Shown: in pieces, positions 14,205 to 33,179 of the stretch | Layout: each line of letters begins with the position of its first letter | Position numbering within the stretch: the stretch's first letter is position 1 | Origin: Verrucomicrobiia bacterium | Lineage (GTDB): Bacteria > Verrucomicrobiota > Verrucomicrobiia > Limisphaerales > Palsa-1400 | Assembly (NCBI GenBank): GCA_036272955.1 | Contig: DATAXU010000188.1 | Coordinates: 7,995-71,994, forward strand | Length of the DNA stretch: 64,000 nt | Reading direction: 5' to 3' | Translations under genes and position numbers: made by a program | The notes under the pieces: generated by a model | Databases searched by the model: none | What the model saw: the letters and a program-made list of their open reading frames with translations, nothing else | What the model was told of the DNA's origin: nothing

Positions 14205-17200
14205 ATGCAAAAATTCATATTGCTCTGCTCGTGCGTGTTTGTCTCCATGCTGGCCGAGACCACGGCCATGGCTCAACTGACGGTCTGGTCCAATGTGTGG
14301 GGCGCCGGCTGGGAAAATTATAGCTATAATTCAACACTGAATTTCCAAAATACTTCACCTCTCACCAACAGCAGCGAATATTCCATCGCTGTGACGATCA
14401 CCGCTGAATACGGCGGCTTTGTGCCCTACATCCCTCCCACGTCGGATGCGGCTTACGGCAGCGTCAGCTTCTGGATCAACGGCGGCCCGGCCGGCGGGCA
14501 GCATCTCCAAATGTACGGCAATCTTGGAACAGGGCCTTCGACTCAGGCCAGTCGCGTTGCTTTAAGCCCCAAGGCCAATACCTGGACGCATTACACAATC
14601 TCACTGGCGTCTCTGGACGTGTCGAACCAGGCGATTTTCAGCGGTTTCGCCATTCAGGATTCCGCAGGAACGGCTGAGCCAGTGTTTTATCTGGATAACA
14701 TGCTGCTCACCAGTTCAACTCCGTTGACGGCGAACGCTGGGACCGGCCAGACAAATTGCATGGGTGGCAGCACAACCATCGGGAGCAATCCCACCGCCAT
14801 CGGCGGCGGTGGTGGATACACTTACAGTTGGAGTCCCGCCACGGGTCTTAACAGCGCGACGGTGGCGAATCCAACCGCTTCGCCCACGGCCACTACCACC
14901 TATACGGTCACAGTCACCGACGCCGCGGAAAGCACCGCGCTCTCCACCGTGACGGTGACCGTCAGCCCTGACGAGGCGGGCACGGCGAGCGCGGGCACCA
15001 ACCAGACGATTGCCGCCGGCAACAACACGGCGGGCCTGGGCGGTTCGGTGGGCGGCGGCGCCACGGGCGGCATCTGGACGACATCCGGCTCGGGCACCTT
15101 TGTGCCAGGCGCGACCACGTTGAATGCCATCTATGATCCGTCAGCAAACGATATTGCGGCTGGCACGGTTACTCTGACGCTGACCACGACCGGGCCGGTT
15201 TCGCCTTGCGCCGCGGCCACGGCACAAGTGGTGGTGACCATTCAGGGCACGACGGTGATCTACTCCAATGCACTGGTGAACGGCTGGGTTGACGCCAGTT
15301 ATGAGACCACGCTGAATTACGCCAATACTTCCCCGGTCAATTCCGGAAGCGAGGATTCCATTAGCGCGACCATTACCAGCTCTTACGGCGGCTTTGGGGT
15401 CTATCATGCGCCGATGTCGGACAGCGCCCGCGCCAGTGTCAGCTTCTGGCTCAACGGCGGCGCAACCGGCGGGCAAAATCTGCAAATGTATGGCACGGAG
15501 GGGGGCTACCCTGAAGGTTTCTGCACGTTGACCGCACCGCTGGCCAACTCCTGGCAGCAGTACTTCGTGCCGTTGTCGGCCCTGGGCGTGGAGGACGCGA
15601 CGAACTTCACCGGGTTCGTCATACAGGATTCCGCCGGCACGGGGGAGCCAACATTTTACGTGGATGACATCGAACTCACCAGCGCCACGGCGCCACCGCT
15701 AACGACGCTGACGGTGAACGCCGGCCAGCCCATCCGCATGGCGGACCCACGCCTGTTCGGATTGAACACGGCAATATGGGACGGCAATCTTGACACACCG
15801 GACACGATCATGCTGCTGACCAATATGGGTGTGAATGCGTTGCGTTACCCGGGTGGGTCTGATTCCGACAATTATCACTGGGTTTCCAACGGGCTGGCCG
15901 GGGGAGGTTATGCGTCCCCGTCAGCCAGCCTGGCAAGTTTCATACAAGTGATCACCAACATTGGCGGGGAAACCATGATCACGATGAACTATGGCACAGG
16001 CACATCGAATGAAGCCGCGGCGTGGGTGGCGTATGTCAACGCCTCGACCACGAATACGACATCTTTGGGCGTGGACGAATACGGCATCAACTGGCAAACC
16101 GCCGGGTATTGGGCCTCGTTGCGAGCGGCCGAGCCGTTGAAGTCCGACGACGGCAAAAACTTTCTGCGCATCTCCCACACCGCGCCGCTGGGTTTCGAGT
16201 ATTGGGAGATTGGCAACGAGGTTTACGGCGCTTCCTGGGAAACTGATAATAACGTCGTGGCTCATGATCCTTACACCTATGCGATGCGGTCGGCCGGATA
16301 CATCGGCTTGATTAAAGCAGTTGATCCGACGGTCAAAATCGGGGTGGTGGTCGAGACCGGCGAGGATAGCTATATCAATAACTACGACCATTATGTGCTG
16401 AACCCGGTTACGGAACGGTCTCACTACGGTTGGACGCCGGTTTTGCTGGCAACTTTGAGCAGCCTGGGCGTGACGCCGGACTTTGCCATTTTCCATAATT
16501 ATCCGCAGAATCCTGGCAGCGAGTCCGACGCAGGGTTGCTGGCATCCTCAACCGGGTCCGGAGGATGGGCGGATGACGCGGCGAATCTGCGCATGATGCT
16601 CACCGATTATATGGGTTCCGCGGGCGCGAACACGGAATTGGTCTGCACCGAAAACAACTCGGTTTCTTCCGGCCCCGGCAAACAATCGGTGAGCCTCGTC
16701 AACGGACTTTACAAGTTGGACAGCCAGGCCCAACTCATGCAGACGGAATTCAACGGACTTTTCTGGTGGGATTTGCGCAACGGCCAAAGCTCCGATTATA
16801 ATGACAGCGCCACGCTTTACGGTTGGCGTGAGTATGGCGATTACGGTATCGCGAATTCGGATTCGGACCTCGGGGAGACAGACCTTTACCCAACTTATTA
16901 CGTGAGCGAATTGATGAAAAATTTCGTGCAGGAAAACGATACCGTTATCGCCGCCGCAAGCACGTATCCGCTGCTTTCCATTTATGCGGTTCAGCGCCAG
17001 GACGGCAGAGTGACGGCGTTGGTCATTAACAAAGACCCTGTCAACACTCTCGCAGGAGAGGTGCAGGTGAGCGGCTTTACCCCGGCTTCAGGCGGGGTGG
17101 TCTATTCTTACGGAATTCCCCAGGACAATGCCGTGGAAAACGATACCGGCTCACCGAACGTGGCCCAAACCGCCATTTCCGTCAGCGGAACAAACATCAG

Positions 17201-17465
17201 CTATGCCTTCGCGCCTTACTCGGCCACGGTAATTTCACTCTCCCCGTCGCCGGCAACATTGCAGGCCGTTACCCAAAGCGCCGGCCAGTTCGTCTTTCAA
17301 CTGCAGGGTCAGTCGGGCGTTCCTTATGTGATCGAGACTTCGACCAATATGATCACCTGGACTCAGGTCAGCGCCAACACGCCTCTCTCGAACATGCTGA
17401 ATATCACCAATTCCGTGACTCCAACGCAGCCGGAGCAATTTTGGCGGGTAGTCTGGAAACCCTAG
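14205..17465 (+). CDS. Secreted multidomain glycoside hydrolase (GH51-like / clan GH-A arabinofuranosidase-like) with two N-terminal CBM-like modules
   Basis: Signal peptide. Two paralogous ~170-aa modules (..SVSFW(I/L)NGG..GGQ.LQMYG..F(S/T)GF.IQDSAGT.EP.FY.D). Catalytic-domain motifs LRYPGGSDSDNYHW and YWEIGNEVYG resemble GH51 (IRYPGGNF..YNW, LGNEMDG). The C-terminal module ends in FWRV. Confidence 0.7.
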   Translation: MQKFILLCSCVFVSMLAETTAMAQLTVWSNVWGAGWENYSYNSTLNFQNTSPLTNSSEYSIAVTITAEYGGFVPYIPPTSDAAYGSVSFWINGGPAGGQHLQMYGNLGTGPSTQASRVALSPKANTWTHYTISLASLDVSNQAIFSGFAIQDSAGTAEPVFYLDNMLLTSSTPLTANAGTGQTNCMGGSTTIGSNPTAIGGGGGYTYSWSPATGLNSATVANPTASPTATTTYTVTVTDAAESTALSTVTVTVSPDEAGTASAGTNQTIAAGNNTAGLGGSVGGGATGGIWTTSGSGTFVPGATTLNAIYDPSANDIAAGTVTLTLTTTGPVSPCAAATAQVVVTIQGTTVIYSNALVNGWVDASYETTLNYANTSPVNSGSEDSISATITSSYGGFGVYHAPMSDSARASVSFWLNGGATGGQNLQMYGTEGGYPEGFCTLTAPLANSWQQYFVPLSALGVEDATNFTGFVIQDSAGTGEPTFYVDDIELTSATAPPLTTLTVNAGQPIRMADPRLFGLNTAIWDGNLDTPDTIMLLTNMGVNALRYPGGSDSDNYHWVSNGLAGGGYASPSASLASFIQVITNIGGETMITMNYGTGTSNEAAAWVAYVNASTTNTTSLGVDEYGINWQTAGYWASLRAAEPLKSDDGKNFLRISHTAPLGFEYWEIGNEVYGASWETDNNVVAHDPYTYAMRSAGYIGLIKAVDPTVKIGVVVETGEDSYINNYDHYVLNPVTERSHYGWTPVLLATLSSLGVTPDFAIFHNYPQNPGSESDAGLLASSTGSGGWADDAANLRMMLTDYMGSAGANTELVCTENNSVSSGPGKQSVSLVNGLYKLDSQAQLMQTEFNGLFWWDLRNGQSSDYNDSATLYGWREYGDYGIANSDSDLGETDLYPTYYVSELMKNFVQENDTVIAAASTYPLLSIYAVQRQDGRVTALVINKDPVNTLAGEVQVSGFTPASGGVVYSYGIPQDNAVENDTGSPNVAQTAISVSGTNISYAFAPYSATVISLSPSPATLQAVTQSAGQFVFQLQGQSGVPYVIETSTNMITWTQVSANTPLSNMLNITNSVTPTQPEQFWRVVWKP

Positions 17466-17523
17466 CGGCCGAGAGCGATTCTTCCCGGTCGGCAAACGGG
17501 ATTGCTTTCGCTGGATTTATGCG

Positions 17524-19521
17524 ATGTCCGGCGCGAGATTGAGGGAAATGAACTTGTCGCGCGCCGTCAAAATCGTTGTGTCCGCGATCCTGGTTGTCCA
17601 GCCGGGCAGGGGATTGGATGGCCAAACCGTTTCAATTGATACCTCACAAACGGGTCGCGCTCAGGTGATCGACGGATTCGGGACTTGCCTCTCCGGGACG
17701 GAGGCGAGTCAAACAACGTGGTGGACCAACTTATATTTCGGCGATTTGCAGGCCTCGATGCTGCGGATGGATCTGACGCCCAATTTCAAGTCTCCCTATT
17801 CGGCCAATAGCTACAACTCACCCGGTTACGGCAATCCTGGCCCGGGCGGCAACTACGTTCGCACCTACACCAACGCGACCACCTACACCAACCTGTTTAA
17901 CGGAAGCCAGGCGCCAATCGCCGTCATGGGGCCGAACATCGATTCCAACATCGCTTACTTCAATTTCACCGGATCGGGGACTGGCCAGCAGGTGGCGGGG
18001 CTGACTGCCCAAACCGGCAAGGCGCTGATTACCAATCTGGGCGATTTCAAACTGTTCGCTTCGCTATGGTCCCCAATGCCGTGGGTGAAACTGGTTGATG
18101 GCAATACCTACAATAGCGGCGGCAGTAATCTTCCGACGAACGGAACTCCCTATCCGTTCATCTGGCTTGGCAATTTCGCCGGCGGCTCGCTCGATGTTTC
18201 CGGCGTGCCACGATCCGAGTTTGATGACTCCGCGCTGGGCGGAAATGGGCCGACCAGCGCTCTGACACAGTTTGCCCGTTGCATGGCTGCCTACCTGCGC
18301 GGTTTTCAAAATACGTACGGAGTTTCGTTTTACGCGATTAGCATTCAAAACGAGTTGGACTTTGATGAGTATTATAACAGCTGCTATTATCCTCTGACCA
18401 ACGGCTATATCGCCGCGCTCACCGCAGTCAGGTCCGAGCTAAACCAATACCCGGACCTCGCGGGCATCAAAATCATGGGGCCTGAAGATGTCTTGGGCGG
18501 TGATGCCTACGGGATGTGGCAGTACGGCGGCGGCAGCACCGCCTCCGCCAAGAACCTCCAATTTCTGCAAGGCGTGGGCGCCAATCCGACCGCCTCCGCC
18601 GCCGAGGCCTATTTCTGCGTTCATGGCTATGACAGCGACGGCGTTTCGGCGGCCGCCGCCACTCCGACTCAATGGCTCTGGTGGGTCAACGGCTGGACTG
18701 CAAGCCCCGCGGCGGGAATTCCGGCCAAGGTCGCCGGCTTCGGCTCTTTCGGAAAAAAATCCTGGATGACCGAAACTTCGGGTGAGAATCCAGCGTGGCT
18801 GTATCCGACCAGCGGATTTCCGGGCGGAGGCGCGTGGAGCATCGCGCTGAGGATCCAACAAGCGCTCACCGCCGGACGGGAGAGCGGTTGGGCTTACTGG
18901 CAAATGACAGACGGCAGCCCCATCGGCGCTGAGACTCTTACGGATTCATCCACGCTACAGAACTCGCCCAAATACGTCGCCGCAAAACATTTCCTTCGTT
19001 ACATCCGGCCCAATTCGATTTGCGTGAACGCCACGGTCAGCGGTGATCCCGCGCTCACAGCTTCCGCCTTTTTGCATACGACCAACGGCACGATGACCAT
19101 CGTGCTCATCAATGCGACCAACACGCCGGTTCAAGCGGTTGTCAATTCACCCGCGCAGCCCGCCGGGATAACTTCGTGGCAGACCTTCACTTCGAGCGCC
19201 GGAAGCTATTGGCAAATCTCGAGCAACACGATCACCAACGGCCACGCGAACGTGAATGTCCCGGGTTACGGTGTGGTGACCCTTTACGGAATGGCGCCGC
19301 CTCAACTGAGCGCCTCCCTCCTCGCAAGCGGGCAAATAAACCTGGCATGGCCTCCCAGCGCCAACGGCTTCCAACTTCAGACGTCAACCAACCTGAACTC
19401 CCCATGGATCAATGTCGCGAGTGGAGCGGTGACAATTACTGGGCTATCCAACGGCTTGGTAAGCGCGACATTTCTTCCGACGAACAGTGCGATGTTCTTA
19501 CGCCTGATGCAGCCGTTTTAG
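17524..19521 (+). CDS. Secreted glycoside hydrolase family 30-like protein
   Basis: GFGTCLSG, SLWSPMPWVK, YAISIQNELDF (acid/base Glu context) and KKSWMTETSG (nucleophile Glu context) are GH30-like. The C-terminal module ends in FLRL. Confidence 0.65.
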   Translation: MSGARLREMNLSRAVKIVVSAILVVQPGRGLDGQTVSIDTSQTGRAQVIDGFGTCLSGTEASQTTWWTNLYFGDLQASMLRMDLTPNFKSPYSANSYNSPGYGNPGPGGNYVRTYTNATTYTNLFNGSQAPIAVMGPNIDSNIAYFNFTGSGTGQQVAGLTAQTGKALITNLGDFKLFASLWSPMPWVKLVDGNTYNSGGSNLPTNGTPYPFIWLGNFAGGSLDVSGVPRSEFDDSALGGNGPTSALTQFARCMAAYLRGFQNTYGVSFYAISIQNELDFDEYYNSCYYPLTNGYIAALTAVRSELNQYPDLAGIKIMGPEDVLGGDAYGMWQYGGGSTASAKNLQFLQGVGANPTASAAEAYFCVHGYDSDGVSAAAATPTQWLWWVNGWTASPAAGIPAKVAGFGSFGKKSWMTETSGENPAWLYPTSGFPGGGAWSIALRIQQALTAGRESGWAYWQMTDGSPIGAETLTDSSTLQNSPKYVAAKHFLRYIRPNSICVNATVSGDPALTASAFLHTTNGTMTIVLINATNTPVQAVVNSPAQPAGITSWQTFTSSAGSYWQISSNTITNGHANVNVPGYGVVTLYGMAPPQLSASLLASGQINLAWPPSANGFQLQTSTNLNSPWINVASGAVTITGLSNGLVSATFLPTNSAMFLRLMQPF

Positions 19522-19596: not shown

Positions 19597-20139
19597 GTGG
19601 AGCGGGGTGATCCCAAAGCCGCCGGCGAACTGCTCCCCATCGTTTATGAGGAACTCCGCCGTGTGGCTGCGCAAAAAATGGCGCGCGAAGCGGCGGGACA
19701 TACTCTCCAGCCGACTGCGCTGGTTCACGAGGCATGGATGCGGCTGGGCGGAAGTGAGGCTCCGACTTTTCAGAATCGCGCCCATTTCTTTGGCGCGGCG
19801 GCCGAGGCGATGCGCCGCATTCTGATCGAGCACGCGCGGCGAAGATTGGCGAGAAAGCGAGGCGCGGGCGCGGAGGTGGTGGACCTGGATGGACTCGAGA
19901 TTTCCTCTCCGCTGGCCGATGACGACCAGTTGCTCGCGGTGAACGAAGCGCTGGAAAAACTTTCGGCCGTTGATCCGCGCAAGGCGGAACTGGTGAAGCT
20001 GCGTTACTTCGTCGGACTCAATTTCGAGGATACCGCCGCCGCGCTCGGGATCGCGGTGCCCACGGCTAAACAGTGGTGGGCGTACACGCGGTCGTGGCTG
20101 ACGGTTGAGATGGGCGGGGCGGCGCGGGTTTTTAAGTGA
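19597..20139 (+). CDS. ECF sigma factor (Sigma70_ECF / TIGR02999-like)
   Basis: GDPKAAGELLPIVYEELRRVAAQKMAREAAGHTLQPTALVHEAWMRL plus the C-terminal VKLRYFVGLNFEDTAAALGI HTH. The frame is open upstream to a TTG at 19534, and the conserved-looking N-terminus (SEFTQILERVERGD) suggests the true start is upstream of the GTG at 19597. Confidence 0.85.
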   Translation: MERGDPKAAGELLPIVYEELRRVAAQKMAREAAGHTLQPTALVHEAWMRLGGSEAPTFQNRAHFFGAAAEAMRRILIEHARRRLARKRGAGAEVVDLDGLEISSPLADDDQLLAVNEALEKLSAVDPRKAELVKLRYFVGLNFEDTAAALGIAVPTAKQWWAYTRSWLTVEMGGAARVFK

Positions 20140-20231
20140 GAAATGGGAATAAATTCGTCTAAAAATCCAACGGTTGGATTTTGGAAGATTTATTAATACT
20201 TTTTGTCCCTCGCTTGCGCATGTAGTCTTGA

Positions 20232-21125
20232 ATGAGCAAATCAAAGTCAGAGATGCAATCACCCCAGGAACGCGAGGAAGCGCTGTTTCAGGCCGCTGTG
20301 CAACTAAATGGCGCTGAACGGGTTGTATTCCTAAATGGCGCCTGCCTTGGCGACGATACCCTGCGGCAACGCCTGGAGGCATTGCTGGCCGCGCATGACG
20401 CGCCGGACGAAACCGCCGCCGTTGAGACGATGAAACTGGAGCCGGCCGACACGGCGGACGAAGCCGTGGGCCAAATGCTTGGGCCTTACAAGCTTTTGGA
20501 GCGCCTTGGCGAAGGCGGTTGCGGCGTGGTCTATGTCGCGGAGCAAACCCGGCCAGTGCGCCGTCGCGTGGCGCTCAAGGTCATCAAGCTGGGGATGGAT
20601 ACCAAGGCCGTTGTCGCGCGCTTCGAGGCGGAACGGCAGGCGCTGGCGATGATGGATCATCCCAATATCGCCAAGGTGCTCGATGCCGGGTCCACGGAGA
20701 CTGGCCGGCCATTCTTTGTGATGGAATTGGTGCGGGGCATCCGGATCACCGAATATTGCGACCAGAATAATCTCACCACACATGACCGGCTCGATTTGTT
20801 CATCAAGATCTGCCACGCCATTCAGCACGCACACCAGAAGGGCATCATTCACCGGGACATCAAGCCGTCCAACATTCTGGTGACGCTGCACGACGGGGTG
20901 CCGGTGCCGAAGGTGATCGACTTCGGGATCGCCAAGGCGACGGAGGGAAGACTCACTGATGCAACGGTTTACACGCAATTGCACCAGTTTATCGGCACAC
21001 CGGCTTATATGAGCCCGGAGCAGGCGGAGATGAGCGGGTTGGACATCGATACGCGGAGCGACATCTATACTGTTTCCAGGAATCATCAGCAGTCATCCCG
21101 ACCAATGTTTACTAAGGTTTCATGA
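20232..21125 (+). pseudogene. 5' fragment of a disrupted Ser/Thr protein kinase gene (N-terminal region plus kinase subdomains I-VIII)
   Basis: [45 protein letters not shown], then TRSDIY. Homology stops after nt 21068 and 18 unrelated residues run to a stop. Confidence 0.85.
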
Positions 21126-21173
21126 AAGTCGTATTGTCCTGAATCATCACGAATTTGCGTGAAAAACACCAAA

Positions 21174-21198
21174 CAGTATCAGATTGCAGTATCAGATT
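21174..21198. repeat. Tandem 12-nt direct repeat (CAGTATCAGATT x2, 13-bp period), iteron-like
   Basis: Read directly: cagtatcagatt g cagtatcagatt. It lies in the 434-bp non-coding left arm of the insertion. Confidence 0.6.
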
Positions 21199-21502
21199 TG
21201 ATGGCGGGTGACGGAAATCTCCTGCCTTGAGTGGAGTCGAAATCTTCCCCCTTCGTGTTCCCGTGTAGTGATTCGGATTGCTAAACTCATTAAGGCCAAG
21301 CCGAATGCCAACACGCGAACACTCCACCCCGACAAATGCCTGGTCGTGTCGTCATTGGCATCGGGATTGCGCCCCTTTCACCCCCGAAACACCGCTTCCA
21401 ATGCCAACACCGCCAGGAGGGGATTTTCTCACGGGCCGATATGAGTCCCGGCGACCCCCGTTGGGATGTCTTGTCCGCGCCATTTATACGTAAGACCACA
21501 AT

Positions 21503-22339
21503 TCAGGGACCGTTAACAAAAGCGGGGTTCCAATCGACATGCCAGTAATAAGTCCAAAGGTCTGGCAATTTTACCAACTCGGCGTGGCCGTCAGCGCAAC
21601 TGAGATTGATTGCGCCGGGCAGCGGTTGGCCCGAGGTGTACGGAACAGAACTGCCAGCGGTCCGCCCGCCGTGTCTCAAGATCGTAGAACAACCCATGCC
21701 TACTCGGACGTACGAATTCGGGTTTTGTTGCCCGGTATAGAGGTCGTTCGCAGCGCGATCTGTTTCTAAAGGAATCATCGTATCATAATTCTGATCGTAA
21801 ACCAATGGCGTTTGCGCAGGTTTCAGAACCGAGGAAAATTTCGGGAAAAAGTACCTAGCTAGGCTGCCTCCTCCCAAAGCTGGCGGTGCCTTCGTCATGA
21901 AATCTGTAAACCACCCGTTGAATCCATAGCTCCCAACCACAGGAAGAACGCCACCAGTGCCGCCTACCACCCATGCAAGGTCAGCAGCCCCGCCTCCTTG
22001 ATTTAGCGGTAATAAAGGCTGGCGCGTTGAGGGACAAAGTCTAACTTGGTCAAACACTCCGTAATTAGTAAACGCCTCTTCCCAGAATTCCGGAATCGTC
22101 GGATCGTAGGTTGGGAAATTTGGCACGTTATTTGGGATACCACTGGGATTATCGTTCAAATACATTAAACCCGCGACCGTGATTTGTTTAACGTTATTGA
22201 GACAATTGATCTGCCGAGCCTGCATTTTCGCTTGGGCCAAGGCAGGAAGCAATAGCGCGGCCAGAATAGCAATGATGCCAACGACCACCAGTAGTTCCAC
22301 TAATGTAAAACCACGCCATGACCTGACTTTTCCGCGCAT
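21503..22339 (-). CDS. Prepilin-type N-terminal cleavage/methylation domain protein (pseudopilin-like, H-X9-DG family)
   Basis: [26 protein letters not shown] is a class III signal. The C-terminus [18 protein letters not shown] matches the H-X9-DG-type motif common in the PVC group. The likely start is Met9 of ORF 21503..22363. Confidence 0.75.
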
Positions 22340-22395
22340 TGTCACTTCAATAAAATATATCACCTGATCGTCAAGACCTCAAGCGCCTCGAACCG

Positions 22396-25101
22396 CTAAT
22401 TTGAGCCATTAGTCCAAGTGTAAGTATTGGTCGTAATCAGGACAAAGCCTTGGCCCACATTAAGCATGGGGACACCACTGGACCATGTACCGGAACTATA
22501 CGTGTGCGAAATATAAGCCTGTGTGTTGGTGCTCCAAACCTGGACGATGTCACCGTTCTGCGGCAGGTACCCTGTCACGTTCGTTATCGCTCCCGCCATT
22601 GGGAACGTGGAACTCAAATAGTTTGTTTTGCTCGTAATGTGAAATACCTGCTGTTCCTGGACAAGTCCAGCAAACGAAGCCGTGAACGAATGGCCCGTAC
22701 CATTACTGACCAGCACGCTTGACCCCGGTATCAACGTCATGTCTCCACCCGAAAGCCACGTGGGAAAGTGAGCGTCGTTGTAGCTATCTGCATTGAAGCT
22801 GGTTCCGTTCCACTTAAACACTTGCGTTGGGTCCTGAGTGGTACTCCAAGGGTTCACCAGTGTGAATAGCGCACTCAATGTGTTCATAGGCCAGCATTGA
22901 AATGCCTCTGGCCCGCCTGCATAGAACTCTAAATATTCCACTTCGTCATCCACTTGATAAAGCTGATTGGCGACAAGATTCGTTCCAGGCGCAATAGTTA
23001 AATTTACAAACCCAATTATTCTTGAACAACAATTGCTATTGCACAGTTGATAAAACCGTTGCGACCCCCCGGTGACACTGGTGTCTGTAAAGGTATTGGT
23101 GCCTGACGCATTCGTGCTTCCAGCAGCATTTAACGGCAAATTTGACGCAATCTCAACCCAATTTGATAGATTTGTGGAAGAATAGACATTCCACAGGGTG
23201 TTCGCCTGTCCGACAATTCTAAACGTGAACTCACCGCTAATACTATTTGTTTCTTGCGATAAAAAGGGCGGATTGCACGTTGTCCCAACTGGGACAACAG
23301 TCCCCTGTTGACCCGTGTGGCTCGGATTCTGTTGATACATCGGCCAAGGCGCGTTTGTCTCAAGCGACCCAGACCCCCAAAGAGCGTACAAGGTGCCATT
23401 GTCGCAACCGAAAATAATCGTTCCGTCAGCAGCAATTAGCGGACTGGAGAGGATTGGAGACCCCGTATAAAATGTCCAAGCTTGAACCCCGTTCGTCAGG
23501 GCGTAAAGGCCCCCATCGTCACAGCCAAAATACTCCCAGCCGCCAGTGCCTAACGCCACGGATGTGCTCACATAGTTGTCGTCAAGCCCAAACATCCACC
23601 GTTGAGTACCGTCAGAATTGATGCAAAAAACATCTCCCGCATCTACGAAATAATCCTCAGAATAAGAGCTTCCAATTCCAAAATAAATTTCGTTGTCAGG
23701 GCCAATTGTTGGCCCGGACTGAATTACTCCAAAGCTTCCATCAGGTTGAACAACATCAAAAATCCACATCAATGAACCGTCTGGGGCCACTTTATACAAA
23801 TAATCTGAATAGGACCCTATAACAATGTTGCCATCAGAATCAATAGCGGGCGAGGAGTCCGGTTCATCGTCACCTGCCACTGGCAAGAACCATTTTAAGT
23901 TGCCACTGCTGGAAATGGCATAAAGTCTGTGACCTTCCGCCAAAAAATACACGGTTCCGTCAGCGGCTACTACGGGGTTGCAGTCGATGTCCCCCGCGTT
24001 TCCGTAAAAGAGGTCCTGTGGTTGAAACATCCAATTGGTTGCCCCGCTGATCGAGTTAAGAGAGGTAAGTCCTGTAATAGGATTGAATACCCGCCCCGCC
24101 AATGTTTCATCGGTCGTCACATATACCTCTCCATTAGTGCCCAGCGACGGCGTGGAATAAATGGCGCTGAAGTTTCCTAAATTGAACACGGCATTTGTCG
24201 TACCATCGGGATTGATTACGTATAAATGTCCATCGGTAGAACCGACAAATATCTGGCCGCTGGGACTCACGATTGGGGAACTCGTCATTTCCGCTGGTTG
24301 TGGAAACACGCCGTTACTCGCAAAGAGGCTGCCGTTAAAAATACGATCACTCCATTTCACAATCCCGGTTAGAAAGTCAACCGCATAAAGCGTGTTGCTG
24401 GCCGTTGCCATGTACACTGTTTGACCGTCAGGTGACAATGCGGGGGAAGCATCCATTCCGTAACCAAACGCATCTTGGTTTGTGGCAGTGGCCGGATTGT
24501 ACAGTTGCACAGCCCAACGCACCGTTCTCGGCACAGCCTGCAAAGCTCGAAAGAAAACGCCTTCATACGAAGTGTCAATCAGAACAGGCTGCGCGAGCGA
24601 AACCGTATTCGTTGCCAGTAACGATTGATTCGTATACCACGGCCCAAGAAGATTGGTTGCAATTTCCAGCACGTAAGGGAGTCCGGGAATTGTGTTCGAC
24701 AGCGTCACCTGCACTTCGTTTGTCGAAATTTGTGTGATGAATAGCCAAAGGTTCGTGCCCGGTTCGAGAAGGTTATACGTAACGGTGGTGCCGCCGCCAC
24801 CGCCAGTTCCGACGTACGGGGTAGGTGGGCCGCTATCATCCGGTTCCAAACCACCGCTTGTGCGGCCCATTGGCGTGATCGACCCGTCAGGGTTATCCCA
24901 TCCAAATCCGATGCGATAAGCGGAGCCATCCCATTGGATGTAATTGGCCGTTCCCGGCGGAGCAGGTGGAGGCACAATGTCCTGGGCCACTACTGAAACT
25001 CCGATGCCTAACGTAGCGAGGAGGAATAGGAATTGATCGAAGCGAAACAGTGAAGCCGGAACATTCTGGGCCAGTCTTTCGCGGATTGTCGAGTTGGTCA
25101 T
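22396..25101 (-). CDS. Secreted PQQ-like (BamB-type) beta-propeller repeat protein, about 900 aa
   Basis: The likely start is Met68 (MTNSTIRERL..FLFLLATLGIGVSVVAQD signal). At least six repeats of the G..(V/I)Y.....G.LYA(V/I/L)...G...W type. Two copies of the recurrent module (..YVLEIATNLLGPW..VFFRAL, ..YSSTNLSNW..RFYQL). Confidence 0.75.
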   Translation of the reverse strand: MTNSTIRERLAQNVPASLFRFDQFLFLLATLGIGVSVVAQDIVPPPAPPGTANYIQWDGSAYRIGFGWDNPDGSITPMGRTSGGLEPDDSGPPTPYVGTGGGGGTTVTYNLLEPGTNLWLFITQISTNEVQVTLSNTIPGLPYVLEIATNLLGPWYTNQSLLATNTVSLAQPVLIDTSYEGVFFRALQAVPRTVRWAVQLYNPATATNQDAFGYGMDASPALSPDGQTVYMATASNTLYAVDFLTGIVKWSDRIFNGSLFASNGVFPQPAEMTSSPIVSPSGQIFVGSTDGHLYVINPDGTTNAVFNLGNFSAIYSTPSLGTNGEVYVTTDETLAGRVFNPITGLTSLNSISGATNWMFQPQDLFYGNAGDIDCNPVVAADGTVYFLAEGHRLYAISSSGNLKWFLPVAGDDEPDSSPAIDSDGNIVIGSYSDYLYKVAPDGSLMWIFDVVQPDGSFGVIQSGPTIGPDNEIYFGIGSSYSEDYFVDAGDVFCINSDGTQRWMFGLDDNYVSTSVALGTGGWEYFGCDDGGLYALTNGVQAWTFYTGSPILSSPLIAADGTIIFGCDNGTLYALWGSGSLETNAPWPMYQQNPSHTGQQGTVVPVGTTCNPPFLSQETNSISGEFTFRIVGQANTLWNVYSSTNLSNWVEIASNLPLNAAGSTNASGTNTFTDTSVTGGSQRFYQLCNSNCCSRIIGFVNLTIAPGTNLVANQLYQVDDEVEYLEFYAGGPEAFQCWPMNTLSALFTLVNPWSTTQDPTQVFKWNGTSFNADSYNDAHFPTWLSGGDMTLIPGSSVLVSNGTGHSFTASFAGLVQEQQVFHITSKTNYLSSTFPMAGAITNVTGYLPQNGDIVQVWSTNTQAYISHTYSSGTWSSGVPMLNVGQGFVLITTNTYTWTNGSN

Positions 25102-25537
25102 ATGGGGAATATTTCTTGGCCGATTTTTCTCACAGACGCCTGAAAGGCGCACGCCCCGTGCTCCCCCAGGAGGCAACCCGCTAAGGCGCCTTACAGAAAA
25201 AACACAAGACGGCGCCCATTGGGGCGTCGCCTTGGCCTCGTTTCTGTATTTGCCTTTAAAAAAAATTAGCGGGTTTTTCCTGTGGCTTTGAGTAGCGGCC
25301 AACGCTACGCAAAATCTAAATTATTTAAAGAACTGCCTTTTCTTTTGACCAAATCACCTTTCAAATGCAAGGCATATCTCTCGTTTTGTCCGCAAATCCC
25401 CGGACGGCTCTTAGAATGTGATCTTTAAATGACGTTTTCACGTAGTTTCGCAAGCGAGGGATCAGACGGAGCTTCTGCCCTCCGAATCCGCGCGGCTTAA
25501 ATTTCGGGACAGTTATTAGTGTATTAAACAAGGTTAA

Positions 25538-25580
25538 GGGCGGCGAGGGGCCGGGCTAAAGCCCGGCCCGCCCGCCGCCC
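25538..25580 (-). terminator. GC-rich ~19-bp stem / 4-nt loop hairpin 13 nt downstream of the 109-aa ORF (terminator or rolling-circle origin candidate)
   Basis: gggcggcgaggggccgggc taaa gcccggcccgcccgccgccc. The arms are complementary apart from a small internal mismatch/bulge. Confidence 0.45.
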
Positions 25581-25592
25581 CTTCACTCTCCG

Positions 25593-25922
25593 TCATGCCA
25601 CCATTTCGGCCTCTTTGATGAGGAAACGCTTGTCCCGTTCTTCCCATCGCATCACTTTCAACGTGACTTGCTGGAATTCCGGCAACTTCGGAAACGCGAC
25701 GACGTTTTCGCCGTCGAGCTTAACCTGGCCGTCTTTCGGGTCGTGGAACACTTCCCACACCGCCATTCCCGGTTGCAACGCCATTTCATGCCGAACGATG
25801 ACGAATACGCCCGTTCCGTCTTTGCGCTTGTGCGCTTTGGCGGCACTCGACATGACCACGCCGCGCACGAACAAGCCGTTCAGCTTGTCGTTGTGAGCAG
25901 GTTGTTTTGCATTATCAGCCAT
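25593..25922 (-). CDS. Hypothetical 109-aa protein of the inserted element (speculatively an OB-fold/ssDNA-binding accessory protein)
   Basis: Internal ATG (MADNAKQP..) preceded by AAGGAGGG 8 nt upstream. It overlaps the 3' end of the Rep gene by 43 nt. No recognised family. Confidence 0.5.
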   Translation of the reverse strand: MADNAKQPAHNDKLNGLFVRGVVMSSAAKAHKRKDGTGVFVIVRHEMALQPGMAVWEVFHDPKDGQVKLDGENVVAFPKLPEFQQVTLKVMRWEERDKRFLIKEAEMVA

Positions 25923-26764
25923 AACGATAATCCCTCCTTTCTTGGTATGATTATTTCCCCGCTGCCTTTGTAGCGACCATCCAGCGCAGCGGACAAAACC
26001 AGATGATCGAAAATCTCCCGATACGGAATGCGAAATAGAACCGTCCGAACCGTGCCATTTAATCGAATCGCCGCCATGCGAGCCCATCGCCGGAATCGTT
26101 CACCGATTGTGTAGGAGGCCCGCGGTTCCTTTTTCTCTGTTGATTCGGCTTCCGGTTCTGGACGGTACGCAGGGCGGTTGGCTGGTTTGAGAAAACCCTT
26201 TGTGCTTTGAAATACTCGCAGTCGATTCCGTTCTTTCAGCCATTCCGGCAATTCGTCAGGCTTCGTGACGTATTTCAGCAGATAATGAAAATCCCGGTTC
26301 GTGATTCGCTGGACTTTCACCCACCCCAAACCCCACAACTCCGACAGCAGTTCCTTAGGCAGAAAACGGCGCGTCAGGAAAATGACGTGGTAATGCACCC
26401 ATCCGCTTTCGTGGAATTCAACCTTGACGCAATACGGCGCGTCTATGGTGTAAGTCTTGCCTTCGTGCTCGACACCGTGCCGGAGTTGAAAGAAAACTTT
26501 GCGCAACCAATCCCGGCTGTCGTCAAATGCGCTTTCCTCGTTGGCGTAAAGTTTCGGGTCCAGTGTGAAGGTCAGAAACAGCTTTCCGCTTACATCCGGC
26601 AGGCGATCCCAAAGTCGAGCCAGAACTTTGTAAATCCCGACCGGGTGAAACCATGAAGCGGGGACGAATTCCTTTATCGTTTGCTCACATCCTGGAGGTT
26701 TAATCAAAGTCGCGCCGCTCACAGTGGCCGCCCCGACGCACCCTGCGGCCACTATTCGCCCCAC
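25880..26764 (-). CDS. HUH-superfamily rolling-circle replication initiator (phiX174 gpA / Microviridae VP4-like, Y2 type)
   Basis: Motif I FLTFTL (aa 63-68), motif II HYHVIF (nt 26378..26395), and motif III YLLKYVTK with two Tyr spaced YxxxY (nt 26261..26284, compare phiX174 YVAKYVNK). 294 aa with a GTG start 25 nt from the right junction. Confidence 0.75.
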   Translation of the reverse strand: MGRIVAAGCVGAATVSGATLIKPPGCEQTIKEFVPASWFHPVGIYKVLARLWDRLPDVSGKLFLTFTLDPKLYANEESAFDDSRDWLRKVFFQLRHGVEHEGKTYTIDAPYCVKVEFHESGWVHYHVIFLTRRFLPKELLSELWGLGWVKVQRITNRDFHYLLKYVTKPDELPEWLKERNRLRVFQSTKGFLKPANRPAYRPEPEAESTEKKEPRASYTIGERFRRWARMAAIRLNGTVRTVLFRIPYREIFDHLVLSAALDGRYKGSGEIIIPRKEGLSLWLIMQNNLLTTTS

Positions 26765-26789
26765 CGTCGCGACTGATGGAGACTCATAA

Positions 26790-29700
26790 TCGCTGGGTGT
26801 GTTGCTCTACGAACTGCTCGCCGGCAGCACGCCGTTTGACGCAAACGAGTTGATGTCGCAAGGCATTGACCAGATGCGCAAGACGATTCGGGAGCAGGAA
26901 CCGCCTCGCTCGAGCACGCGCCTTGCGACCCTCGGAGCCGCCGAACTGACGACCACAGCCAAGCGTCGCTCCGCCGATACTTCGAGGCTGATGCACCAGC
27001 TCAAGGGCGACCTGGACTGGATCGTGATGAAGTGCCTGGAGAAAGACCGCATGCGGCGCTACGAGACGGCCAACGGACTTGCCGCCGACTTGAAACGGCA
27101 CCTGAACAATGAAACGGTGATCGCCCGGCCGCCGAGCGCCGCCTACAAATTTCAAAAGGCGTTCCGACGTAACAAGCTGGTGTTTACCGCCGCGGGAGCG
27201 GTGACGGCGGCATTGGTGTTGGGCATTATTGCCAGCACCTGGCAATCGATTCGGGCCAACCATGCCAAACAACAGGCCCTGGCAGCCGAGGCGCGAGCCA
27301 TCCAGGCGCAAGCCGATGAAACGAAACAGCGGCAACTTGCCGAGAAGGAGGCGCGGCAGGCCGAGCAGGCGAAGGAGGTCGCCGATCGAGAATCCATTGC
27401 GGCACGGCGGACGGCGGCCGAGTCTGATGCGCATTACCTTCTCCATGAAGGGCTTCTACCCGACGCGCTCGCCAAAGCGACCGAGGCGTTCAAACTGGGC
27501 GGGGCGTGGGAAGACGGGCTTCTAATTAACGATATTGCCGAGACGGCGCGGCAAAACTGGGTATTATCCGCCCGTGTTCCGTTAAGCGAACCGGCGAACG
27601 TGGCCTGTGTGACACGATTTAAAGACAGACCGTGCCTGGTTATGTCCGTAGCCAGCGGACTTCGTGTGATAGATGCGCTTAACGGCGCCATGCTTGGGTC
27701 AGTGCCTTTCTCGGAACATGTATGGCAATTATTCCAAGGTGTGGATTCGAACACCGTAGTGGCGGTTTCTGATGCATCGGTTTCGCTCTTTTCGCTTCCA
27801 TCGCTCACGGTCGCGGCAAAAGAAGAGCTGCCGGCCCCGTTGGGCTTCGCGGCGGCAAATGGCACCAGCCTCATTCTTTTGCTCAACAACCACGATGTGC
27901 ATATACTTGACCTTTCCAACGTGTCGGAAGTGGCATCCTTCAATTGGGACACGAATCCGGGGACGAAAAAATTTCAAGCGCCGCGTCATGCGTGCGTTTC
28001 GCCCGACGGCAAACTTGCGCTGCTTCATGGCGGGAGTTATCTCGACCCCGTGGTGGTTTGGGACCGACGAAGCGATCCGCCGACATTTACGGCGCGGGAC
28101 ATCCCGATGCAGGAGTTCAAATTTATTGACAACAAACGTTTCGCGACGTGGGAGCTAGTAGGCAACGGAGAAACAGAGACGCCGGACAATATCAACGTCT
28201 ATGACGCGGAGCACACGCCGGTGGCCGTCATGTCGCAGTCCATTCCCAACGATAACATCAAGGGGCACGTGGAGTTCCAGGCTTGGAGCGCAAAAGAGTG
28301 GGGTTTCGAAACGGATTTTCCGATTGTCGGCGGCATCGGGCCGTCCGGTCTTGGGTTCAAGGGGATGGACACCACCGGGGAGTTTCAAGGGGATTTCAGT
28401 TTCAGTGATCGCTACGCCAATCTGCTGCCGTCGGATGCGGACACGCTGAAATTTCTTGCGGCCGGCATGGACAAAGGGGTGCTGGCGCTTCAATCGGCGA
28501 GCAACCTTTTGATTTTCCAGTTGAGCTGGCTGCACTGGAGCGGCGCGACCCGGGACTACTGCGCGACAGCCTGCTCCAACGGCCTTCTTTACATGAGCCG
28601 AGCCATCAAACCGGCGCCGATACTCACGTTTATTCCCTTTGACCCGCGGCAAAAGCCCGCGCGCTTCAGCCTGCAATGGCCGTCGGACAGCAAATGGCTC
28701 CCGTGGGCCGTCGCCGCCACGCCGGACGCCTCCACCGTCGCGGTCGTTGGACAGGAGACGGATTCCGGCAACAGGTTCAACGCGCACTATGGTCGCGTCC
28801 GCGCCCTGATTTACCGTACGGGTAGCTTGACGGACGGACCTTCGGCCTGGCCCATCCAAAACGCCTTCCAGATTGATGCGCCTGATTGTCTTTCGTTCAC
28901 GCCGCGTTTTTTGGCGCTGGATACTGAGGGTCACGCGTTGCTGTACTGGAATTCCACCAGCACGGTCAACCGATATGATTGCCGCGATGGCAAACCTCTC
29001 GGGACTCTCGAACTGGGACTTGTCAGCGCGCGCTCGCGCGATGGGCGGCGCGTTGCCTCAGTCTCCCCCGACGGGCGGATCCGTGTCTATGACTTGTCCA
29101 CCGGCGACGTGGTTCTTGACCAGCAGAGCAAGCCGGCCGCGGGAATCTGTTTGTCCCCGGAAGGCTCGCGCCTTGTGGCGTCCCAGGAGGGGATGCTCAA
29201 AGAGTACGACGTGGCGTCGGGGCGTGTGCTTTCGTCGGTTCCCTCCAAATTGTTGCCGCTGGCCTGCCCTGCACACGGAAGCCACTTGCTTGCGTTTCAG
29301 CCGGACACGACTGGACTTGGAGGCTCGGTCGTTTTGGCGGACACGGGGGATGCGCGGGTTGCCGCCGTGCTGAATCGGGCGGGAACCAGTTTTACGCCGG
29401 CCTATTTCAGCGATTCCGGGAATCAAATTGCCATTATTAGCAGGTTTGATACCAAGGTTGTTCGCTCGCTGCGGCCGGAAGAAATTCCAGCAGTGTTGAA
29501 CACGCCCCTTCCTGAGACGACCGAGCTTCAACCTTTGGCTCCTGCGACTATTGCGACAACGGCCGTTTCGGCAACCGCGGTTGGATCAGAAGACGTTTTC
29601 GATGCGGGAAACATTTCGGGGCTGCAATCGCACATGGGGGACCTGGTGACGATTCAAGGGAGCGTTCGGGATGTCAACCTGGTCACTGCCGGGAATGCGG

Positions 29701-29969
29701 CCAATATTTACTTTGAAACGGCGGGGACAACGCCGGTCCAGGTGTGGGTGCCGTGGGATCCGTTTCCGAAATTGAAAACCCGCCTTGGCAAAGACCTTGA
29801 GGCGGCGTTGCATGGGCGCACGATTAAAGCCACGGGACGGCTGTCGCTTTACCGGGGAAACATTGAACTTACTTTGTCTGATGCGGGTAAATTCGTGATT
29901 GTCTCTCCAGGTGTAGCGATCGGGACATTCACCACGAAGGCCACGAAGGAAGACGAAAAGAAAAATTGA
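26790..29969 (+). pseudogene. 3' fragment of the disrupted Ser/Thr kinase gene (subdomains IX-XI, TM segment, large extracytoplasmic region)
   Basis: SLGVLLYELLAGSTPFD..DLDWIVMKCLEKDRMRRYETANGLAADL, then the TM segment LVFTAAGAVTAALVLGIIA and about 850 aa. A TAA lies immediately upstream at 26787..26789. An internal GTG at 26799 could still permit expression of a kinase-less protein. Confidence 0.85.
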
Positions 29970-29980
29970 AATACCTGGAA

Positions 29981-32900
29981 CTAGTCTAAATGGCGTTTGC
30001 GCCAGAGGACGTAGATCACGGGGTATAGGAGCAATTCCAAGATTCCGGATGTGATGACGCCGCCAATCATTGGGGCGGCAATGCGTTTCATTACGTCGGC
30101 GCCGCTTTGTGTCGTGGCCGACCACATGATGGGCAGCAATCCAAATAGGATGGCGCAAATGGTCATGAGCTTGGGGCGGACGCGGTTGACGGCTCCTTCA
30201 ATTACGGCGGCGCGGAGATCGTCCATGGACTTCATGCGGCCCTGGGCGCGGAATTTTTCCCATGCCTGGTCGAGATAGAGCAGCATGACGACACCGGTTT
30301 CGGCGTCGAGGCCCGCCAGCGCGATGAGGCCCACCCAGACCGCCACGCTCATGTTGTAGCCGAGCAGGTACAAAAGCCAAAAGGCTCCGATGAGCGAAAA
30401 TGGCACGGCCAGCAGGACGATGAGCGTTTTCACGGCGGACCTGGTGTTCATGTAGATGAGCGTGAAAATAATCATCAGTGTGAATGGCACCACTATTTTA
30501 AGGCGCTGCTCGGCGCTTTTGAGATATTCGAATTGGCCGGCCCATTGGATGTAGTAACCGGGCGGAAATTTCACAACGTCGTTGATGCGCTTGGACGCGG
30601 CATCGACGTAGCCTTGAATATCAGAGCTGGTAATATCCACGAAAACAAATCCGACAAGCTGGCCGTTTTCGTTGCGAATGGAAGGCGGGCCGGTCTTGTA
30701 ACTGATGTCCGCCAGCATCGAAATTGGAATTTGAGCAGGCGAGGTGGCGCCAGCCATCGGGACCGGCACCAGGACCCGCTTGAGGCTGTTGAGGTCTCCA
30801 CGAAAATCCCGGGCGTAACGGACGTTGATGGGATAGCGCTCGCGGCCTTCAACGGTGGTGGCGATGGTTTTGCCGCCGATGGCAGTCTCGACGATATCGT
30901 TGACATCGCCAACGGTCAGACCGTAGCGGGCGGCCGCTTTGCGATTCGGGGTGAAATCCAGGAAGTAACCGCCCGTGGTGCGCTCCGCAAAGGCGCTTCG
31001 AGTATTGGGAAAATCGCTGAGGGCGCGTTCGATTTGCACGCCGATGTCCTGAATCGTGCCGAGGTCGGGGCCAAAGACCTTGATGCCGAGAATGGACCGG
31101 AAGCCGGTGGTCAGCATTTCCGTGCGGGTTTGGATCGGCATCCAAAAAATGTTCGCCATGCCGGGCGTCTTGACGTTGGCGTTCATTTCCGCGAGCAGCT
31201 TTTCCCAGGTCATTCCGGACGGCCATTGATCGGGCGGCTTGAGTTTCACCACCGTTTCAATCATGGAGAGCGGCGCGGGATCGGTGGGCGTTTCCGATTG
31301 GCCCGCCTTGCCGAAGACGGTTTCCACTTCGGGAAATTTCCGCAACATCCGGTCCTGAATTTGCAGAATCTTCACCGCTTCATCGATGGAGATGCCCGGG
31401 ACGGCGGTGGGCATGTAAAGGATGTCGCCTTCGTTGAGCGGCGGCATGAATTCCTTGCCGAGTCGCTTGTAAGGATAAATTGTCGCCGCCATCGCGAGCA
31501 GGGCGAGAATCAGCGTGAGCCACCGAAAGCGCAGCACGAAATTCACGAAAGGGCGGTACGCCCAAATGAGGAAACGATTGACGGGATTTTTTATTTCCGG
31601 CGTGATCCTGCCGCGAATGAACAGCAACATCAGAACGGGCACGAGCGTCACGCCGAGCACTGCCGCAAAAAACATCGAGAATGTTTTCGTAAAGGCCAGC
31701 GGTTTGAATAATCGCCCTTCCTGCGCGACCAGCGAGAACACCGGAATGAAACTCACGGTGATGACAAGCAACGCAAAAAACAACGGGCGGCCAACGCTTT
31801 TTGCCGCCGCAATAATCACTTCGACGCGTTCGGGATTCGTCGGCTCACGCTGGTGTTCGTCCCGAAAATGTTCCAGGTATTTGTGCGCGTTCTCGACCAT
31901 GATAATGGCGGAATCGACCATCGCGCCGATGGCAATGGCGATGCCGCCGAGCGACATAATGTTCGAGGTCAGGTGCAACCCGAACATCGGCAGAAATGAA
32001 AGAAGGATGGCGATGGGAAGGGTGATGATGGCCACGAGCGCGGAGCGGATATGCCAGAGGAACACCAGGCAAACCAGCGCCACGACGATGCATTCCTCGA
32101 TCAGCTTTTCGCGGAGCGTTGCGATGGACCGCTTGATGAGTTCGCTCCGGTCATACGTGGGGACGATGGTTACTCCATCCGGCAACGACGATTTGATTTC
32201 TTCGAGCTTCTTTTTGATTCCATCGATGACGTTGAGGGCGTTCTCCCCGTAACGCATTACGACGATCCCGCCGACCACTTCGCCTTCACCATTCAATTCG
32301 GCGGCGCCGCGACGCAAATCCGGTCCTAGATGGACTGTGCCTACGTTTTTGACATAAACCGGCGTGCCTTTATCCGTCTTGAGCGGAATGTCCTCAATAT
32401 CCCCAATATTCTGAATGTAGCCGCGGCCTCGCACGTAATATTCGGTCGAAGCCACTTCGAAAACCTTGCCGCCGACGTCGCCGTTGGAGGCGCGAATTTT
32501 GGCAACTATTTCGCTGATGGGAATGCCGTAAGCGAGCAACTTATCCGGATCGAGATCGACCTGGTATTCTTTGACAAAGCCTCCGACCGGCGCTACTTCG
32601 GCCACGCCTTTGACCGATTCAAGGGCGTAGCGCAAATGCCAATCCTGAAGCGAGCGCAAGTCGGCGAGGTTATGTTTTCCGCTTTTATCCACCAGGGCGT
32701 ATTCGTAAACCCAACCGACGCCCGTGGCGTCCGGGCCTATAACGGGATTCACGCCGTCCGGCAGGCTGCCGCGCACTGAATTCAAATACTCCAGCACGCG
32801 CGACCGCGCCCAATAGATGTCCGTTCCATCCTCGAAAATCACGTACACAAAAGATTTGCCGAACATGGATTCGCCCCGGACGAATTTTACTTTCGGCGCC

Positions 32901-33169: not shown

Positions 33170-33179
33170 GAGTGATTTC

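Follow-up and report, generated by a model that had tools for sequence, protein, structure and literature searches.

How can a DNA segment that encodes no recombinase come to lie, base for base, inside a protein-coding gene? The question is raised by a 64-kb stretch of a Verrucomicrobiia bacterium genome (hereafter the window), in which a Ser/Thr kinase gene is split by a 5721-bp insert encoding a rolling-circle replication initiator (Rep) of the HUH type. An initial annotation of this DNA had proposed that a Rep-encoding circular replicon or rolling-circle transposon entered here by the kind of mechanism used by IS91, ISCR and Helitron elements, and that it belonged to no described element class. 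We find that the insert is best filed as a decayed member, at a secondary site, of a family of elements that carry a tyrosine integrase and an excisionase (Xis)-like gene next to rep. Probably it was placed by such an integrase at a pseudo-attachment site (pseudo-attB) in the kinase gene, and no new insertion mechanism is needed.

The insert splits a kinase gene without gain or loss of host bases

The interrupted reading frame (20232..21125, plus strand) encodes the kinase through ..SDIY and then 18 unrelated codons, and the kinase frame picks up again as SLGVLLYELLAG at 26790. The clean bisection reported in the initial annotation is borne out: removing 21069..26789, that is, joining 21068 to 26790 in silico, gives a continuous kinase domain, with one Pfam Pkinase match that spans the junction (residues 86-374, profile 1-256/263, E 6.8e-46). 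The annotation had also proposed a search for an uninterrupted site. Intact full-length orthologs of the kinase do exist (P0122-P0136, 57-71% identity, ~1325 aa), and the DNA of the ortholog in locus L087 reads ..AGCGACATTTATTCGTTGGG.. at the site, with zero extra bases. The insertion thus neither removed nor added host bases.

No direct repeats or terminal inverted repeats (TIR) were found at 21069/26789, in line with the earlier statement that the insert has neither a target-site duplication (TSD) nor TIR. Likewise, Pfam and tblastn searches returned no integrase or transposase in the insert or in the rest of the window, as the annotation had concluded for the insert, and no tRNA gene was found in the 64 kb. 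Serine recombinases and DDE transposases were set aside, neither giving a Pfam match in any open reading frame (ORF) of the insert, and so was a group II intron, there being no reverse transcriptase among the Pfam matches of these ORFs. An Rfam scan of the insert gave only sub-threshold matches to generic hairpins.

The annotation had raised the possibility of chimeric junctions. Two further assemblies share the insertion, which is therefore not an assembly artefact: a 6.9-kb contig from a different JGI sample (L091) is 100% identical over window positions 20204-27138, both junctions included, and a 12.9-kb contig from a third sample (L086, 99.4% identical) contains the right junction. The GC content of the insert is ~0.45-0.57 (roughly 0.50) versus ~0.58-0.62 in the flanks; the AT-richness noted earlier is thus correct in direction, while the hand-counted values of 33% and 70% were local extremes. 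Every ORF of the insert lies on the minus strand, opposite to the kinase, also as previously described.

Relatives of the Rep define a family of tRNA-integrating elements

Close homologs of the Rep number 470 (70-88% identity), all from metagenome-assembled genomes of Verrucomicrobiota or from metagenomes where a source is given; a search with the Rep alignment found no relatives in IMG/VR. We fetched 91 loci around Rep homologs and define the family here from them. A block matching window positions 25502..26687, which comprises rep, a 109-aa ORF, a hairpin and ~35 nt more, is common to all loci at 73-87% DNA identity. Taking as informative the 45 loci with at least 2.8 kb of sequence upstream of rep, a tyrosine integrase gene (Pfam Phage_integrase) lies on the same strand at most 2.5 kb upstream of rep in 40, and is usually followed by a variable ORF and then by a Xis-like gene of the HTH_17/MerR type (helix-turn-helix, HTH) abutting rep. 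The five exceptions are L086, which is the window's own insertion, and L001, L085, L088 and L089.

Most long loci contain a minus-strand tRNA gene 2.3-2.8 kb upstream of rep, the types being Met, Ser-cga/gga/gct, Leu-taa/caa/tag, Arg-tct/cct and Phe. Both copies of the attachment (att) site were identified in 11 loci, as direct repeats of 17-41 bp bounding elements of 4.1-12.1 kb. In 10 of these 11 the starting point of the repeat is 0-3 nt ahead of the first anticodon-loop base, and the 5' end of the tRNA is its other limit. The positions concerned in L004 are 7647-7722 and 11804-11843, and the same pattern was seen in L005, L006, L010, L011, L036, L038, L083, L084 and L090. Since the att repeat is the 5' half of the tRNA, the element appears to supply the 5' half of the integrase-adjacent tRNA and presumably the promoter as well. 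Elements that integrate into tRNA genes usually regenerate the 3' end, and the polarity of this family is unusual. Canonical members are predicted, from their att repeats, to recombine at the anticodon loop and to regenerate the 5' half of the tRNA.

In each element, short tandem repeats come as a pair in both arms, ~125-150 nt from the core on the P side and immediately before int on the P' side, with a motif (TCTGATACTG.., TTTGGATACTG.. or CTGTGCTAC..) that covaries with the integrase lineage. Judged by sequence and position, this is the layout of putative arm-type sites of the integrase. The canonical order of the family is attL (tRNA), tyrosine integrase, variable ORF, Xis-like HTH gene, G2P-type HUH Rep, 109-aa ORF, hairpin and invariant sequence, variable cargo, P arm and attR. 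Relatives that almost always carry a tyrosine integrase and a Xis-like gene, and that reside in tRNA genes, do not support the undescribed element class of the initial annotation.

The window copy keeps one attachment arm and lacks the integrase module

Measured against this order, the window copy retains the conserved core (G2P-type Rep, 109-aa ORF, hairpin and invariant 34 nt) and a P arm in which the paired arm repeats are present and the GGGATGA..CCTG motif stands beside the core. It is without the P' arm, int, the variable ORF, the xis-like gene and the first ~19 codons of rep (MKxTWGNPxRxVSQGGG.., present in L004, L084 and L002); neither Pfam nor tblastn detected a tyrosine integrase or Xis-like HTH gene of its own upstream of rep. 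Only the P-arm pair of repeats is kept, relatives also having the P' pair just upstream of int. The copy does not lie in a tRNA gene and has no att direct repeats. With integrase and Xis-like gene absent, we read it as a deletion derivative and not as a complete member.

Both ends of the insert can be placed on the family map. At the Rep end, homology with the relatives extends upstream of the GTG start codon, through sequence that codes for the N terminus in them (..SPSVATVGR..), and stops ~10 nt before the end of the insert. At the other end, read on the Rep strand, the terminal 131 nt (window 21069..21199) share 82% identity with the P arm of L004, an element residing in tRNA-Met, and this homology stops exactly at 21069.

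The target imitates the anticodon stem-loop of tRNA-Met

The uninterrupted kinase site, AGCGA-ATAGATG-TCGCT (centre AGCGACATCTATTCGCT), consists of two 5-bp arms in perfect inverted repetition around a 7-nt spacer. These arms agree with the anticodon stem of tRNA-Met (AGCGA/TCGCC) at 9/10 positions, and the insertion point is the exact stem/loop boundary of the mimic. The earlier statement that there is no tRNA or dif-like target thus holds for tRNA genes, none being present in the window, and fails for the target itself. The mimic is coded by the conserved subdomain IX codons AGC-GAC-ATC-TAT-TCG-CTG. The paralogous kinase named in the initial annotation is present in the window (~8680-8740, minus strand, with ..ASDVYSLGAILYELLTG..) and has no AGCGA-N7-TCGCT pseudo-att site, because its codons there are TCG GAT GTT TAT TCG CTG. 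The window, both strands counted, is expected to contain 0.59 occurrences of the pattern AGCGA-N7-TCGCY (~5e-6 per position), so that chance placement at this register would be of the order of 1e-5.

The junctions carry the same signature. On the Rep side, AGCGA|TTATGAGTCTCC, whose first five bases are kinase codons, agrees at 16/17 positions with AGCGATTATGAGTCGCC, the tRNA-Met anticodon stem-loop at attL of L004, and the terminal TTATGAG TC is the reverse complement of the whole tRNA-Met anticodon loop plus two stem bases (compare the L004 att core, gaTTATGAGTCgcc). The attR-like junction reads ..GGAAACAGT|ATAGATG TCGCT on the Rep strand, GGAAACAGT being the end of the element, whose terminal 5 nt, ACAGT, are also the 5 nt adjoining the loop in attR of L084. 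Joined as a circle, the ends of the insert give GGAAACAGT|TTATGAGTC, with the junction GGAAACAGTTTATGAGTC.

These observations bear on integration at a dif-like site by the host XerC/XerD recombinases, the route taken by CTX-type filamentous phages. Inoviruses have the same Rep type, and XerCD is used by many of them (PMC4246890). The target, though, is inside kinase coding sequence, resembles the tRNA-Met stem-loop and is not dif-like by inspection (no comparison with dif was made), and the relatives have their own integrases and occupy tRNA genes. The chance that XerCD was responsible is close to negligible.

An integrase acting at a secondary site would account for the insertion

The action of an integrase at the kinase site and the order of events are what we infer from these features. 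The enzyme would have been an integrase of the family with specificity for tRNA-Met, either carried then by the element itself or provided in trans. It would have recombined an attP core, ..ACAGT|TTATGAG|TCGCC.., with the pseudo-attB AGCGA|ATAGATG|TCGCT, and a heteroduplex or single-strand-exchange intermediate, resolved by replication, would have left attL with the overlap of the element and attR with that of the host, which is the arrangement observed. The missing duplication would then follow from the mismatch of the two 7-nt overlaps, each end keeping a different one. The P' arm, int, variable ORF, xis and first ~19 codons of rep may have been lost after integration or earlier, in plasmid form, and loss of the integrase module would have stranded the copy; alternatively, an integrase-less mini-replicon may have formed first and then been integrated in trans. 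Rep would be the replication initiator of the element and not the inserting enzyme.

Several points weigh against this explanation. The overlaps are identical at only 3/7 positions (TTATGAG vs ATAGATG) and differ at the first base of the inferred cleavage site, and tyrosine recombinases normally require overlap identity. No integrase is present in the insert or the window, so the enzyme is deduced and not observed. L004 is the only available full tRNA-Met reference with both att sites. Part of the terminal TTATGAGTCTCC can be read as Rep-coding (..G.G TCy CCA..), in which case fewer than 12 nt may be strictly att-derived. Finally, the distance from GGGATGA to the core is 24 nt in the window and 32-33 nt in five canonical relatives; the P arm is thus 9 nt short, and an extra event is needed. 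L004 has AAACAGT followed by cTTGACgGA at this place, and L084 has ..TTGACAGT directly adjoining the loop; as a conjecture, a progenitor with two copies of ACAGT could have lost exactly 9 nt by slippage. Other overlap registers, such as GAGTCGC/ATGTCGC (5/7 identity), were tried and rejected, the attL that they predict differing from the one observed. A deletion on the P' side, mediated by the integrase through a pseudo-core in rep, was considered and not confirmed. Precedents exist: IntDOT is a tyrosine recombinase that tolerates heterology in the overlap (PMC2817482), secondary attachment sites are used by other elements (PMC2297512), and Pf prophages pair integrases specific for tRNA-Met/Gly with a rolling-circle replication Rep (PMC7549136).

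The 9-nt shortfall would suit an imprecise end, and thus an illegitimate or microhomology-driven event, in which host repair or recombination pasted a fragment of a decayed integrase-less tRNA-Met copy, from attL ..AGCGA TTATGAG.. to ..AAACAGT, into the kinase gene. The AGCGA common to tRNA-Met attL and the kinase would be the microhomology, one junction then being placeable anywhere within it, and copies in decayed or composite form are frequent in the family (L001 has an integrase fragment, L005 a fused attR). But a coincidence of ~1/500 would be needed to place the second arm, TCGCT, exactly 7 nt away, the other junction has no microhomology, and zero gain or loss of host bases is unusual in repair-mediated capture. 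We regard this origin as unlikely.

Quite unlikely, in our view, is that the insert is a live integrase-less replicon that hitches on others, made up of Rep, origin, cargo and a minimal attP (P arm and core). Such a replicon could arise if the family integrase split a full-length circle, using the core and a pseudo-site within the 5' end of rep. Integrases of co-resident full-length relatives would afterwards insert and excise it in trans, with anticodon-stem-loop mimics within protein-coding genes as its targets, the subdomain IX codons of the kinase being one. No terminal overlaps of the kind left by a circular episome were found on any fetched contig, and an exact-protein look-up with the 286-aa cargo protein, made for a full-length progenitor, gave no record.

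A more radical alternative to such a hitching replicon is that the Rep itself, with its two tyrosines (Y2 type), did the joining. In this model, the HUH (YxxKY) protein would nick both the circle and a chromosomal site and join them, in the manner of IS91, ISCR and Helitron elements or of the adeno-associated virus Rep, without target duplication. The motifs are intact (HYHVIF for HUH; YLLKYVTK, with the two tyrosines of YLLKY), the insert carries no other recombinase, and TSD and TIR are both absent. Against this, the Rep belongs to Pfam REP_ORF2-G2P and not to a transposase family, its PHROGs match being a replication initiation protein, and the model leaves the tRNA-Met mimicry of the target unexplained. 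The position of the candidate origin is also at odds with it. A GC-rich hairpin (25539..25582), whose sequence varies while its pairing is maintained in all 40 distinct loci examined, is followed in 40/40 by a near-invariant CCCTTAACCTTGTTTAATAC(T/A)CTAATAACTGTCC (25507..25541; also written CCCTTAACCTTGTTTAATACTCTAATAACTGTCC, with TTGTTTAATACTCTAATAAC and CCTTGTTTAATACTCTAATAACTGTCC as shorter renderings), the window version having one substitution, at the variable position. On this conservation, hairpin and invariant 34 nt are the foremost candidate site for recognition and nicking by Rep. The site lies ~1.25 kb inside the insert, away from its ends; were Rep the catalyst, opening of the circle would be expected at this point, and the ends coincide instead with integrase att features. 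Moreover, these termini recur in none of the other copies in the 91 loci, nor does any other copy without integrase occupy a non-tRNA site, the same insertion excepted, so the further copies that the initial annotation hoped would define the termini of the element did not turn up at any second site. We consider insertion by Rep very unlikely. Of the original proposal, the Rep replicon, probably circular and of the rolling-circle type, survives; the HUH-mediated, IS91- or Helitron-type explanation of the TSD-free insertion does not, the relatives having an integrase and tRNA att sites, the ends being attP features and the origin internal.

Under the integrase explanation, a clean TSD-free insertion carrying only an HUH Rep can result when a tyrosine integrase acts at a secondary site and the integrase module is subsequently lost, so the absence of a recombinase from an insert would be weak evidence for a new mechanism. 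Coding sequence can also imitate a tRNA anticodon stem-loop well enough to serve as an apparent target, here through one codon choice for the kinase motif SD-I-Y-S-L.

Comparison with known systems

The closest described systems are the Pf and other integrative filamentous prophages, tRNA-integrating islands being also close. In Pf prophages, as here, the type of tyrosine integrase correlates with the tRNA target, tRNA-Met included, and an HTH_17-type excisionase accompanies a rolling-circle Rep of the inovirus kind (PMC7549136). The window copy shares the G2P-type Rep with Inoviridae-like elements, but has no pI/Zot ATPase among the insert ORFs (Pfam, PHROGs), nor was one seen in the scanned cargo of L036, L038 and L084; coat genes were not recognisable in the window copy or in the few relatives whose cargo was scanned. 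Unlike Pf, the elements of the family measure only 4-12 kb and their cargo is variable. The Pf attP fragments for tRNA-Sec and tmRNA are 3'-terminal and end in CCA (PMC7549136), whereas the att block of the family is the tRNA 5' half.

Integrase sublocation classes include a symmetric anticodon stem with its 7-nt loop as the crossover region. As in the islands of the Islander concept (PMC4383910), the target tRNA of family members is split and regenerated by the element, and a displaced fragment marks the far end. The window copy differs from such islands in lying outside a tRNA gene, without integrase and without direct repeat, in a protein-coding mimic. Integration with non-identical overlaps, after which each end has its own 'coupling' sequence and nothing is duplicated, is known from CTnDOT/IntDOT and Tn916-type elements (PMC2817482); heterology is, however, exceptional in the Verrucomicrobiota family, whose canonical members have 17-41 bp of identity. 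Lambda and SGI1 likewise use secondary attachment sites (PMC2297512).

With IS91, ISCR and Helitron elements, and with IS200/IS605, the insert shares an HUH enzyme and the absence of TSD and TIR. It differs from the former in that the Y2/HUH transposase families are not matched, the only Pfam match of the Rep being PF23343 REP_ORF2-G2P, and in that neither conserved ori/ter termini nor multiple copies were found, the origin candidate being internal and the ends att features. It differs from IS200/IS605 in having no Y1_Tnp match and no terminal hairpins or inverted repeats at its ends. The pSAM2-type elements of actinomycetes combine a compact int-xis-rolling-circle rep module with integration into tRNA genes and replicate after excision. 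The Verrucomicrobiota family has the same int, xis and rep module and the same tRNA integration, but an FtsK-like transfer gene was not seen, and Rep family, host phylum and att polarity differ. Overall, this small integrative rolling-circle family of Verrucomicrobiota is apparently uncatalogued, and with its tRNA 5'-half regeneration and the defence cargo of some members, among them a 12-kb element with a Cas9 locus, it may merit a survey of its own.

Genes and cargo of the insert and its relatives

The features of the window copy, together with the CRISPR-Cas locus of L038, are collected in Table 1. The 109-aa ORF gave nothing significant in Pfam, PHROGs or a PDB profile search. Its AlphaFold2 models, from the single sequence and from a 37-sequence alignment, are unreliable (predicted local distance difference test, pLDDT, 41-43); all 284 homologs are at least 74% identical, which makes the alignment too shallow. 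The 164-aa ORF of the initial annotation (25593-26087, minus strand) contains this ORF, the remainder being an upstream extension into rep. A 56-aa ORF (25361-25531, minus strand) shares bases with the invariant origin-like sequence; it is unlikely to be a gene. For the beta-propeller gene the gene caller picks a later start (901 aa). This gene occurs in no other locus of the 91 except the same insertion in L086 and L091, and homologs of the window's cargo genes were not found in other loci.

Table 1. Positions of the features discussed (window coordinates unless a locus is named)
Feature	Position	Strand	Remarks
Kinase, N-terminal part of the interrupted gene	20232..21068	+	ends ..SDIY; ORF continues to 21125 through 18 junk codons
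Left half of pseudo-attB, AGCGA + CATCTAT	21057..21068	.	Rep strand: ATAGATG-TCGCT (host overlap + host C' arm)
Insert, integrase-less 5'-truncated member of the int-xis-Rep family	21069..26789	-	5721 bp
Non-coding stretch	21069..21502		434 bp
attP P-arm remnant	21069..21240	-	aligns with L004, L005, L002, L006, L084
Paired arm repeat TCTGATACTGCAATCTGATACT	21175..21196	-	putative integrase arm-type site; occurs once in the window
Prepilin-type N-methylation / DUF1559-like protein (cargo)	21503..22363	-	286 aa
Beta-propeller (PQQ_2/BamB-like) protein (cargo)	22396..25302	-	predicted N-terminal hydrophobic segment
Candidate replication origin	25507..25582	-	hairpin + invariant sequence
Conserved 109-aa ORF	25593..25922	-	overlaps rep 3' end; always after rep
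HUH Rep	25880..26764	-	Pfam PF23343 REP_ORF2-G2P, E 2.4e-12 (above gathering score)
attL-like junction	26778..26794	-	Rep strand: AGCGA (kinase) + TTATGAG TCTCC (element)
Kinase, C-terminal part	26790..29969	+	SLGVLLYELLAG.., transmembrane segment, large ectodomain
L038 CRISPR array	12116-13602		23 repeats of 36 nt, 30-nt spacers
L038 cas2	13826-14362	-	
L038 cas1	14359-15393	-	
L038 cas9	15341-18562	-	1073-aa Cas9

In the relatives, defence and accessory genes seem to have a hotspot in the cargo slot, which is flanked by the origin-like sequence and the P arm. L038 (7293-19460) is a 12.1-kb member in tRNA-Leu(taa) with a complete type II CRISPR-Cas locus in this slot, its cargo also including a PIN-domain gene. 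L036 (11333-13202) holds a two-gene candidate defence system, PDC-M31 (PADLOC E 2.9e-118 and 1.2e-75), on a 7.1-kb member in tRNA-Arg(tct).

Four of the loci without integrase upstream of rep (L001:9690-9920, L085:9335-9565, L088:9777-10001 and L089:2691-8254) form a subfamily whose Reps are the closest to that of the window (81-88%). Upstream of rep they have a conserved 76-aa ORF, to which a tRNA 3'-end fragment (GGAGCGGGTGAAGGGAATCGAACC) is fused. Of the four, only L089 extends far enough past rep, and there a different integrase, of 434 aa, and an HTH_17 gene follow downstream, from which we conclude that the Rep core swaps integration modules. The contigs of L001, L085 and L088 end 200-300 nt past the 109-aa ORF; breaks after the Rep/109-aa core would fit a repeated or strain-variable region beyond it. 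In L005 (13308-13400) a composite end, in which a P arm of the tRNA-Ser type and a 23-nt core are fused to the CTGTGCTAG arm repeats of an element of the tRNA-Leu type, suggests tandem or recombined elements.

Compared with L086 over window positions 22853-35738, the element shows 1 mismatch in 3937 nt and the flank 76 in 8949 nt. Only 4 of the flank mismatches fall in the first 2.9 kb (kinase gene), the others forming dense clusters, such as 15 within 29651-29738. This uneven divergence is consistent with patchy recombination between strains. We draw no inference from the low divergence of the element as to a recent or independent insertion, the first 2.9 kb of flank being near-identical too and the rest patchy. 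Lastly, a gene for an extracytoplasmic function (ECF) sigma factor lies immediately 5' of the kinase gene both in the window (19597-20139, plus strand) and at L087:167-703, which suggests that sigma factor and kinase are a conserved pair put out of action by the insertion.

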